From Candidatus Jordarchaeia archaeon (GTDB taxonomy: Archaea > Asgardarchaeota > Jordiarchaeia > Jordiarchaeales > Jordiarchaeaceae): a DNA stretch of 64,000 nt. Position 1 is the first letter of the stretch, and each line of letters opens with the position of its first letter. Made by a program: the position numbers and the translations under genes. Location of the stretch: assembly GCA_029856435.1 (NCBI GenBank), contig JAHQXB010000063.1, positions 7,609 through 71,608 on the forward strand, in the 5' to 3' direction. The notes beneath the pieces are model-generated. The model worked only from the letters and a program-made list of their open reading frames with translations. It was not told the origin of the DNA and did not search any database. Below, piece after piece: positions 28,906 to 63,379 of this stretch.

Positions 28906-29112
28906 TGGTGCGGAGGACGAGATGTGTTCAGGGGGTAGCAGGTACCACCGCCTTTGAACTCGTGTAGGCCTATGTGAACTCCCAGATGACTGGGGGTTTC
29001 TACGCCACAGGAGCTCTGATATGCGAGTGATTTGAACTCGAAAACCTCAGTCCTGCTCCATGCCAGTCGAGCCCTTGAGGGGCGACATTTGACCTGGCTC
29101 GGAAACCTCCGC
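28906..29112 (-). tRNA. tRNA-Leu(GAG) with four introns (D-loop, 37/38, variable arm, T-loop) and an encoded CCA
   Basis: Hand-folded cloverleaf elements:
- acceptor GCGGAGG (29112-29106) / CCTCCGC (28916-28910), then A and CCA;
- D arm TCC-GAGCCAGGTCAAA...GGA;
- anticodon stem CAGGA/TCCTG with loop CTGAGG..C (anticodon 29048-29046);
- variable arm GGC-GTAG-GCC;
- T arm ACGAG-TTCAAA..T-CTCGT.
Intervening segments: 29087-29060 (28 nt), 29044-29014 (31 nt), 28999-28970 (30 nt) and 28952-28923 (30 nt). The 88-nt mature tRNA plus 119 nt of introns gives the observed 207 nt. Confidence 0.85.
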
Positions 29113-29180
29113 ACATATACATATATTGGCAAAATAGGATTACACTAAACCAGTTTTTATAAGTTTCTATGGTAGGTAAC

Positions 29181-29287
29181 GGTGATGTAGATTAGTCCTA
29201 TTCTATCCCTCATTTCGAGGCTCTAAATTATAAAAGAAGCCCTATGAAAGCTTCCTTCGAAGGTGAAACCGAATGAATCTACACCGC
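29181..29287. mobile_element. Possible 107-bp MITE-like element or structured RNA, flanked by a 10-bp direct repeat
   Basis: Direct repeat ggtaggtaac at 29171-29180 and 29288-29297. Just inside lie imperfect inverted ends, ggtgatgtagatt (29181-29193) and aatctacaccgc (29276-29287), with 11 of 12 positions pairing. An internal palindrome ccttcgaagg is present. Confidence 0.3.
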
Positions 29288-29488
29288 GGTAGGTAACAAT
29301 ATAATGCAATATGATTATATTTTTCGTGTTTAAAAAAGGGGATAGCATACTATTAAAAAATTTTTTGGGACTCTATTTTTAAAGAGTAAGGTTCAAAAGG
29401 AAAACGTATAAAAATTATAATGCGTATCCATTTTGTGTGGTAGAACTTTGTCTGAGCCCAAAAATTTATTTAGGATATTTGGAATAGT

Positions 29489-29657
29489 GCAGGGATTTCC
29501 GAGTGGTCAATACCCAGCAGTGGTTGGCTACAGGAGCTGGGCTTAGGACCCAGTGGCGTAGTGGTGTCGGCCTGTTTTGGTGGCGCCGCGTAAGCCTTCG
29601 CGTGTTCGAAAAGAAGCATCAGATTGATGCAGCTCGATAGTCACGCTCCCTGCACCA
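29489..29657 (+). tRNA. tRNA-Leu(UAG) with three introns (D-loop, variable arm, T-loop) and an encoded CCA
   Basis: Hand-folded cloverleaf elements:
- acceptor GCAGGGA (29489-29495) / TCCCTGC (29647-29653), then A and CCA;
- intact anticodon arm CTGGG-CTTAGGA-CCCAG (anticodon 29544-29546);
- T arm GCGTG-TTCGAA[30 nt, 29611-29640]T-CACGC.
Extra sequence: ~19 nt in the D-loop (within 29511-29532) and ~32 nt in the variable arm (about 29562-29593). Confidence 0.85.
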
Positions 29658-29695
29658 ATTTTTAAAAGTAGGTATATGCCCTGTTTATTTGGACT

Positions 29696-30544
29696 GTGAG
29701 GTCTTTATTTTTTGGTTTTTGTTTGACGGTGGTTATTTTGGATAAGCGTATTGATAGGATCGATCGCAAGATTGATAAGGGTAGAATTAAAAGGAAGCGC
29801 TCAGAGGATTTGGAGACGACGCAAGCGGTTATTGATAAGAGAACCGCTATGGTTTTGTACGATTTGATTAATAGGGGTTTTTTGGATAGTATGAAGGGGG
29901 TTGTGGCTTCGGGTAAGGAGTCGAATGTTTATTGGGCGACTGCCGAGGAAAATGGGTTTACTCGGGATTTGGCGGTCAAGATTTATAGGACTTCGACTAT
30001 GGATTTTAAGAGGATTTGGGTTTACATTCAGGGGGATCCTCGCTTTACTAAGGTTAAGAGGGATACGCGTTCCATTGTTTATGCATGGGCTGAGAAGGAG
30101 TTCAAGAATCTTAGGTTGGCGGATGAGGCGGGTGTTAGAGTTCCCAAACCCGTTGTTTGGAGGGGTAACGTTCTCGTTATGGAGTTTATTGGTGAAAATG
30201 GAGTTTCTGCCCCTAGGCTGAGAGAGGCAATGGTTGAGGATCCGGAGCCCATTTTTAAAATTGTTTTTGATTATGTTGCTAAGCTTTATGAGAAGGCGGA
30301 ATTGGTGCATGCAGATCTTAGCGAGTATAATATTTTATATTGGGATGAGCCGGTAATAATTGATGTTTCTCAAGCGGTTCTTCTCAGCCACCCTTTAGCA
30401 TTAGATTTTTTGGCTCGTGATCTAAGGAATATTTTAAGATATTTTTCAAGTTTAGGAGTGGAGGTTCCCTCCTTGGAAGAAGCATATAAAAAAGTTACGG
30501 GTGAAGAATTGGTTGGAGACAAGAGAATTTATAAAAGTTCCTAA
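29696..30544 (+). CDS. rio1: RIO-type serine protein kinase Rio1
   Basis: SGKESNVYWA, AVKIYRTS, LVMEFIG, LVHADLSEYNILY and IIDVSQAV. The GTG start at 29696 gives a hydrophobic leader, so a TTG near 29738 (MDKRIDR...) may be the true start. Confidence 0.85.
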   Translation: MRSLFFGFCLTVVILDKRIDRIDRKIDKGRIKRKRSEDLETTQAVIDKRTAMVLYDLINRGFLDSMKGVVASGKESNVYWATAEENGFTRDLAVKIYRTSTMDFKRIWVYIQGDPRFTKVKRDTRSIVYAWAEKEFKNLRLADEAGVRVPKPVVWRGNVLVMEFIGENGVSAPRLREAMVEDPEPIFKIVFDYVAKLYEKAELVHADLSEYNILYWDEPVIIDVSQAVLLSHPLALDFLARDLRNILRYFSSLGVEVPSLEEAYKKVTGEELVGDKRIYKSS

Positions 30545-63195: not shown

Positions 63196-63379
63196 TGGTC
63201 CCGCAGGCCGGACTTTCAAATATAGTGTATAGTGCACTATAAACTTTGAACCAGCGACGTTGGGGCTGAGTACTATGCGCACCCAGTTATCCCGGTGTCT
63301 GAGTGCCTACTGGGGTAAGCCACACTTAACGAGTGCAGCTCTACAGCCGGGCACTCTAGCCAGTCTGAGTTACTGCGGG
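63196..63379 (-). tRNA. tRNA-Tyr(GUA) with three introns (37/38, variable loop, T-loop), a C1-G72 pair and an encoded CCA
   Basis: Hand-folded cloverleaf elements:
- acceptor CCCGCAG (63379-63373) / CTGCGGG (63206-63200), then A and CCA;
- D arm ACTC-AGACTGGCTA-GAGT;
- anticodon stem CCCGG/CCGGG with loop CTGTAGA (anticodon 63344-63342);
- variable loop AT..GTC;
- T arm GCTGG-TTCAAA..T-CCGGC.
Introns: 63339-63296 (44 nt), 63288-63259 (30 nt) and 63244-63213 (32 nt). The spliced 3' half (AUGUC GCUGG UUCAAAU CCGGC) matches M. jannaschii tRNA-Tyr as I recall it. Confidence 0.9.

Follow-up and report, generated by a model that had tools for sequence, protein, structure and literature searches.

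A tRNA-Leu(UAG) gene with three predicted non-canonical introns in a Candidatus Jordarchaeia genome

Within the window analysed here, a stretch of 64,000 nucleotides of a Candidatus Jordarchaeia genome (assembly GCA_029856435.1, contig JAHQXB010000063.1, positions 7,609 to 71,608 of the forward strand), positions 29489-29657 on the plus strand very probably represent a single functional tRNA-Leu(UAG) gene with three introns that would be removed by EndA and RtcB, the D-loop and variable-arm introns being inherited and the T-loop intron having been turned over. A three-intron Leu(UAG) gene is already known from a close relative, and our finding is a confirmed rediscovery, since three curated introns have been tabulated, at matching sites, for the orthologue in CP147778 (Valentin-Alvarado et al. 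2024, Nat Commun, PMC11291895).

Gene anatomy and the exon-intron partition

The gene (29489..29657, +) includes an encoded 3' CCA at 29655-29657 and divides into four exons. Exon 1 (29489..29510), invariant in three congeneric orthologues, provides the 5' strand of the acceptor stem, U8-U9, the 5' strand of the D stem and the D-loop up to GGTCAA. It is followed by intron 1 (29511..29531), which is placed in the D-loop immediately 5' of the 3' strand of the D stem, with a length of 21 nt by homology. Exon 2 (29532..29561) contributes the D-stem 3' strand, the anticodon arm (29537-29553, with the anticodon TAG at 29544-29546) and the 5' strand of the variable arm with its GTAG loop, after which intron 2 (29562..29593, 32 nt) occupies the variable-arm loop. 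Exon 3 (29594..29610) comprises the variable-arm 3' strand, the T-stem 5' strand and TTCGAA of the T-loop, intron 3 (29611..29640, 30 nt) separates T-loop positions 59 and 60, and exon 4 (29641..29657) supplies U60, the 3' strands of the T stem and the acceptor stem, A73 and CCA. The acceptor stem (GCAGGGA/TCCCTGC, with discriminator A), the unbroken anticodon arm (CTGGG-CTTAGGA-CCCAG) and the T stem (GCGTG/CACGC) on which the original prediction was built can all be read in 29489-29657 (+). A split or permuted tRNA arrangement was not encountered; all four exons lie together and in collinear order within 169 nt, ruling out a split or circularly permuted gene.

This partition was recovered through a global alignment with cheap gap extension and no splicing motif, using as reference a Leu(UAG) of 88 nt that lacks introns and comes from a different Asgard family (L009). 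Exactly three insertions of 21, 32 and 30 nt were returned, at the intron coordinates given above. The spliced product is collinear with the intronless reference, the only other gap reflecting a D-loop shorter by 2 nt, and its variable arm, TGGCGTAGGCCTTC (T-GGC-GTAG-GCC-TTC), differs from the intronless TGGCGTAGGCCTGC by one base. As the motif-free alignment yields identical insertions, the T-loop insertion of exactly 30 nt at 29611-29640 that had been proposed from the sequence holds to the nucleotide, and the variable-arm insertion, put at about 32 nt, is exactly 32 nt long. A D-loop insertion also exists as anticipated; its proposed length of about 19 nt however did not stand, being 21 nt by homology or 17 nt by a strict BHB reading.

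The spliced product was then assessed as a tRNA. Removal of 29511-29531, 29562-29593 and 29611-29640 generates an 86-nt molecule recognised by ARAGORN as tRNA-Leu(tag). Its D stem and its variable stem have 3 bp each, the latter with a GTAG loop, and its T-loop reads TTCGAAT. Retention of any one of the three stretches abolishes the call. The features of a class II tRNA-Leu are present throughout: a long variable arm, a 7-nt anticodon loop, U33, a purine at position 37, A73, G18-G19 and a TTCRANY-type T-loop. Together with the motif-free alignment, the ARAGORN call on the spliced product bears out the claim of a class II tRNA-Leu(UAG) with three non-canonical introns and an unbroken anticodon loop.

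Congruent with this partition, sequence variation among close relatives is confined to the introns. We compared the gene with three congeneric orthologues, likewise of 169 nt and 95-98% identical (from the records Freyarchaeota SQRJ_82, Jordarchaeia QZM_A3 and uncultured archaeon), and all 12 variable sites fall within the 83 intron positions, the 86 exon positions being invariant (hypergeometric P = 1.3e-4); three of the 12 reside in the D-loop intron, 29511-29531. The precursor is predicted to fold into an extended cloverleaf, each intron forming a hairpin that lengthens its host arm, with a minimum free energy of -75.6 kcal/mol (z = -4.1, none of 200 shuffles being as stable) and a local z of -3.8 for intron 2. 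Metagenome contigs were scanned for exact matches to the spliced T-loop junction and to the spliced variable-arm junction, in search of an allele without introns or a contig derived from cDNA; both scans returned 0 matches. Splicing of the transcript and the exact cut sites, above all those of the D-loop, are predictions from the sequence.

Neither ARAGORN nor Rfam at its gathering threshold reports a tRNA in the raw window, and the raw locus has no Rfam tRNA match even at E<=10, as is to be expected with three insertions. The anticodon arm occurs only once in a tRNA context in the genome, the assembly of which is 97.8% complete, and the five Leu genes found carry five different anticodons. 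As the sole Leu(UAG) gene, it is almost certainly essential and must be processed. The silence of the standard finders extends well beyond this locus: across the whole 3.54 Mb genome only six Rfam tRNA matches above cut-off (all of 78-107 nt) and three ARAGORN genes were obtained, so that automatic annotation of the assembly will miss most tRNAs. The annotation blind spot thereby includes the only decoder of CUA codons in the genome. Within the window, another tRNA-like gene at 63196-63379 (-) is also missed by ARAGORN and Rfam; its acceptor stem is CCCGCAG/CTGCGGG, the CCA is encoded, T-loop 59/60 holds an insert of 32 nt, and by eye there are a GTA (Tyr) anticodon and further inserts.

A probable promoter block at 29400..29437 (+), consisting of a purine-rich BRE-like stretch and TATAAAAA at 29407-29414, is the best-conserved part of the intergenic region among the five congeneric genomes compared; TATAAAAA lies about 80 nt 5' of the mature tRNA end, and the putative block suggests a 5' leader of about 50 nt. 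Directly 3' of the CCA, a T5 run at 29659..29663 (+), conserved in close relatives, is likely an archaeal terminator. Just downstream follows a RIO kinase gene (29696-30544), the closest relatives of which stem from the records Candidatus Freyarchaeota, Jordarchaeia, Jordarchaeum madagascariense and chromosome CP147778.1 (SRVP19_Freyarchaeia-1), and in every one of these the Leu(UAG) gene adjoins the RIO kinase gene. The genome is thereby assigned to the Freyarchaeia/Jordarchaeia of the Asgard archaea. This synteny, including a divergent Leu(GAG) gene, is conserved across the genus; the Leu(UAG) exons are identical in four genomes and the gene is clearly orthologous in six.

Splice motifs, processing and alternative readings of the locus

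To describe the exon-intron borders, all cut pairs in the gene were scored for BHB motifs, defined by a central helix of 4 bp and two bulges of 3 nt each, with cutting after the second base of a bulge. In the variable-arm intron, the central helix is complete (GCGT/GCGT, four of four pairs, two of them G-U), the bulges are AG|T and AA|G, and the inner helix has 7 bp. The T-loop intron conforms to a relaxed BHB, with three of four central pairs (TTCG/CGAT, one U-U mismatch), bulges AA|A and AG|T, and the 5-bp T stem as outer helix. For the D-loop intron, a 4/4 central helix is available in two registers. The first (TCAA/TTGG, 3-bp inner helix) is the strict alternative that excises the 17 nt of 29513-29529 and leaves the D-loop 4 nt too long, whereas the second (GGTC/GGCT, with weak 1-bp flanking helices) excises 29511-29531 and restores the GGTCAAA D-loop of intronless Asgard Leu tRNAs, which the first does not. 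We prefer the 21-nt register, as the mature tRNA would then be identical in four close genomes, the Freya-1 (G005) and Jordarchaeum (G002) orthologues would likewise obtain a canonical D-loop, and, in the Jordarchaeum orthologue, all four central pairs are retained, against three in the other register; these register comparisons among orthologues were read by eye from the sequences. Within the 169 nt, decoy cut pairs score as high as the true introns, which rank among the top. Because many decoys tie in this manner, we regard the BHB motif as compatible rather than primary evidence, similar to the treatment of relaxed BHB motifs as compatible with splicing but not proof of it in a recent preprint (Goswami et al. 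2026, 10.64898/2026.10.13.758758).

The genome encodes the enzymes that such processing would call for. Two EndA-family genes are present. In the 192-aa protein encoded on contig C104, the Tyr/His/Lys triad and the two endonuclease domains of Pfam are both present. Among PDB entries, it is closest to the heterotetramer of Aeropyrum pernix, namely to the catalytic alpha subunit (3p1z_B, E = 3e-45), and the lysine of the Crenarchaea-specific loop, K44 in A. pernix, aligns with its K47. The 197-aa paralogue on contig C64 has a Ser where the M. jannaschii enzyme has its catalytic His, and is for this reason probably a structural subunit. The loop lysine confers broad substrate specificity, and Asgard EndA proteins are (alpha-beta)2-type enzymes carrying this loop (PMC5829648); judged from its sequence, the EndA of the present genome is predicted to be such a two-subunit enzyme with the broad-specificity lysine. 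RtcB is also encoded (PF01139 match, 579 bits, contig C93:302-1636). In the proposed route, the primary Leu(UAG) transcript would contain three short introns whose hairpins extend the D, variable and T arms, EndA would cut at the BHB or relaxed BHB motifs that exon and intron form together, and RtcB would join the four exons to an 86-nt class II tRNA. As a separate observation, the sole rtcB gene (on the minus strand and outside the window) itself harbors a 30-nt insert with an in-frame TGA, between LPD and AHQGYG of a conserved motif, which looks like a tRNA-type mini-intron within the ligase's own mRNA.

Other interpretations of the locus have to be weighed against a spliced three-intron gene. 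That it is a decaying tRNA pseudogene with junk insertions is extremely unlikely. The failure of ARAGORN and the Rfam tRNA model to detect it would fit such decay, but nearly all tRNA genes of this 97.8% complete genome are missed by standard finders, and we reject a pseudogene given that this is the only Leu(UAG) gene, that its exons are identical in four genomes and clearly orthologous in six, and that synteny is kept. More attention is due to the D-loop, where the insertion might be retained or cut elsewhere, so that the mature tRNA would keep an expanded D arm and the true introns would number only two. This we consider quite improbable, although the register that restores the canonical D-loop has flanking helices of only 1 bp, the tRNAscan-SE call for the Freya-1 orthologue includes just two introns, and D-arm insertions in Asgard tRNA genes are the ones that tRNAscan-SE misses most, with only about a third located at canonical BHB boundaries (Goswami et al. 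2026). The curators of the published genome nevertheless counted a third intron (PMC11291895), the 21 nt hold a quarter of the variable sites while every exon position is invariant, and removal of the insertion gives back the D-loop seen in intronless Asgard Leu tRNAs. Moreover, in the predicted precursor, G18-G19 are locked in an 8-bp helix with the insert. A working tRNA needs contact between the D-loop and the T-loop, which is incompatible with G18-G19 being sequestered in a helix. The more general version, in which the 21-nt D-arm insertion is kept as an extra hairpin and the 'missed' D-arm insertions of Asgard tRNA genes are structural expansions rather than introns, appears highly improbable.

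Published precedent and related systems

The three-intron reading is in agreement with what has been described for related lineages. In Freyarchaeia and Atabeyarchaeia genomes, 92-95% of the tRNA genes have introns, often several and at non-canonical sites (PMC11291895). Supplementary Data 4 of the same study lists, for the Freyarchaeia chromosome CP147778.1, a Leu TAG gene at 1887836-1887665 with two tRNAscan introns, raised to three after manual inspection, and an adjacent Leu GAG gene at 1888074-1888267 with three tRNAscan and four curated introns. We mapped the two tRNAscan introns of the Freya-1 Leu TAG gene after GGCGTAG and after TTCGAA, hence to the equivalents of the variable-arm and T-loop junctions described here. 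Like the gene studied here, that of Freya-1 is syntenic, next to the RIO kinase gene and a divergent Leu(GAG), and its three introns likewise interrupt the D-loop, the variable-arm loop and T-loop 59/60. The first two of these are diverged homologues of their counterparts here, with 77% identity over gene positions 1-122; the Freya-1 gene differs in its acceptor (GCGGGGA), its T stem (ACGGG/CCCGT) and a T-loop intron of 31 nt that is unrelated.

A wider frame is offered by the preprint, which surveys 90 Asgard genomes. There, Freyrarchaeaceae, Jordiarchaeaceae and Atabeyarchaeaceae show a mean of 2.2 intervening sequences per tRNA gene, with up to five, and T-arm insertions mostly coincide with BHB boundaries (Goswami et al. 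2026). The present gene resembles the interrupted tRNA genes of these families in its multiple insertions and in the (alpha-beta)2-like EndA of its genome. Multiple-intron tRNA genes are also known from Thermoproteales, where up to three BHB-type introns per gene are found at non-canonical positions (Sugahara et al. 2007, 2008; Fujishima 2010; as cited in later work). The likeness includes an (alpha-beta)2 EndA with the Crenarchaea-specific loop and related introns across different tRNA genes. However, these organisms belong to the phylum Thermoproteota and not to Asgard, the burden is lower, with Pyrobaculum calidifontis reaching the maximum of 1.54 introns per gene, and their introns are all found by tRNAscan-SE (Goswami et al. 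2026), which the D-arm intron of the Asgard Leu(UAG) gene escapes.

Against this background, the gene is one more confirmed member of the published catalogue of extremely intron-rich tRNA genes of Jordarchaeia/Freyarchaeia and Atabeyarchaeia, and carries little weight alone. What the present analysis supplies is the exact intron coordinates, with the ambiguity of the D-loop cut site stated, and a concrete case, in the T-loop intron, of intron turnover or of exchange between isoacceptor genes.

History of the introns and the neighbouring genes

The three introns appear to have different histories. Those of the D-loop and the variable arm are homologous in sequence in all six congeneric genomes; BLAST runs unbroken through both, over gene positions 1-122, and then stops, with identities of 77% to the Freya-1 orthologue and 73% to the Jordarchaeum orthologue. 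By this homology, the two introns are old, at least at the level of the genus. The T-loop intron behaves differently. The syntenic orthologue of Ca. Jordarchaeum madagascariense has no T-loop intron and an intact TTCGAAT loop, and that of Freya-1 is interrupted at the same site by an unrelated sequence. The original prediction of old, position-conserved introns is accordingly upheld for the D-loop and the variable arm and fails for the T-loop. Introns here evolve faster than exons, as reflected in the exclusively intronic variable sites and in the presence or absence of the T-loop intron among orthologues.

The closest counterparts of the T-loop intron were instead detected in Leu(CAG) genes, with 77% identity to the T-loop intron of Leu(CAG) in Freya-1 and 73% to that in Jordarchaeum, scores that none of 3000 shuffles reach, and the GCGTG/CACGC T stem is common to Leu(UAG) here and to Leu(CAG) of both relatives. 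The simplest account would be that, in the ancestry of this genome, Leu(UAG) exchanged its 3' part with a Leu(CAG)-type gene; we give this roughly even odds, as ancestral sharing followed by loss and replacement could also have produced the pattern. Intron families shared between Asgard tRNA types amount to 1.5% at >=80% identity, and exchange between isoacceptors was found rare and left open as a route (Goswami et al. 2026). The similarity between the Leu(UAG) and Leu(CAG) introns, 73-77%, falls below that threshold and lies within one isotype.

Alternatively, all three introns could be ancient and vertically inherited, with a T-loop intron already present in the ancestor of the Leu CUN genes and since diverged. 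Site 59/60 is occupied in all five Leu genes of the genome and also in a Hermodarchaeota Leu(UAG), and the introns of Leu(UAG) cannot be aligned with those of Leu(GAG), in keeping with a long divergence. On the other hand, the same site is interrupted in about a dozen tRNA genes of the genome, and since 59/60 is used so often, a shared intron position can reflect a splice-permissive hot spot and is a weak sign of shared ancestry. Indeed, repeated gains and losses at the same intron positions have been inferred in Asgard archaea (Goswami et al. 2026). The Jordarchaeum madagascariense orthologue without a T-loop intron, the background-level similarity of the Freya-1 T-loop intron and the match of both intron and T stem to Leu(CAG), a pattern that needs exchange or replacement, also speak against uniform vertical descent, which we consider unlikely, if by no means negligible. 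We thus continue to favor two inherited introns and a T-loop intron that was turned over.

The divergent tRNA-Leu(GAG) gene (28906..29112, -), 376 bp from Leu(UAG), has four introns, in the D-loop (29060-29087), the anticodon loop (within 29013-29044), the variable arm (28970-28999) and the T-loop (28923-28952), all on the minus strand. Insertions in paralogues with other anticodons were placed by landmarks, as alignment to one compact Leu(UAG) is unreliable. As had been proposed, the variable-arm and T-loop intron sites are common to both genes, the former at the same loop site and the latter within 1 nt, while the intron sequences differ, their similarity being no higher than that of shuffles. 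With exons 79% identical and introns at chance similarity, a recent tandem duplication is excluded, in line with the earlier argument. Intron turnover affects both genes, because the T-loop intron of Leu(GAG) is also unlike those of its Jordarchaeum and Freya-1 orthologues (L040, L041), which are similar to one another. The Jordarchaeum Leu(GAG) lacks the anticodon-loop intron.

Further observations concern the remaining Leu genes and the intergenic region. The Leu(CAG) genes of three congeneric genomes (G000 C176:19961-20146 on the minus strand, L033 and L034) contain four introns each, one of which interrupts the anticodon stem in its 5' strand, at positions 30/31, and has a sequence conserved among all three. 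Between the two Leu tRNA genes of the window, a 107-nt element (29181-29287) with terminal inverted repeats is flanked by a target duplication of about 10 bp, GGTAGGTAAC at 29171-29180 and 29288-29297. Neither the 98%-identical relative nor three further congeneric genomes have the element, and some 30 copies at 80-94% identity, together with about 50 more diverged ones, occur in the present genome; by these features, it looks like a member of an active MITE family.
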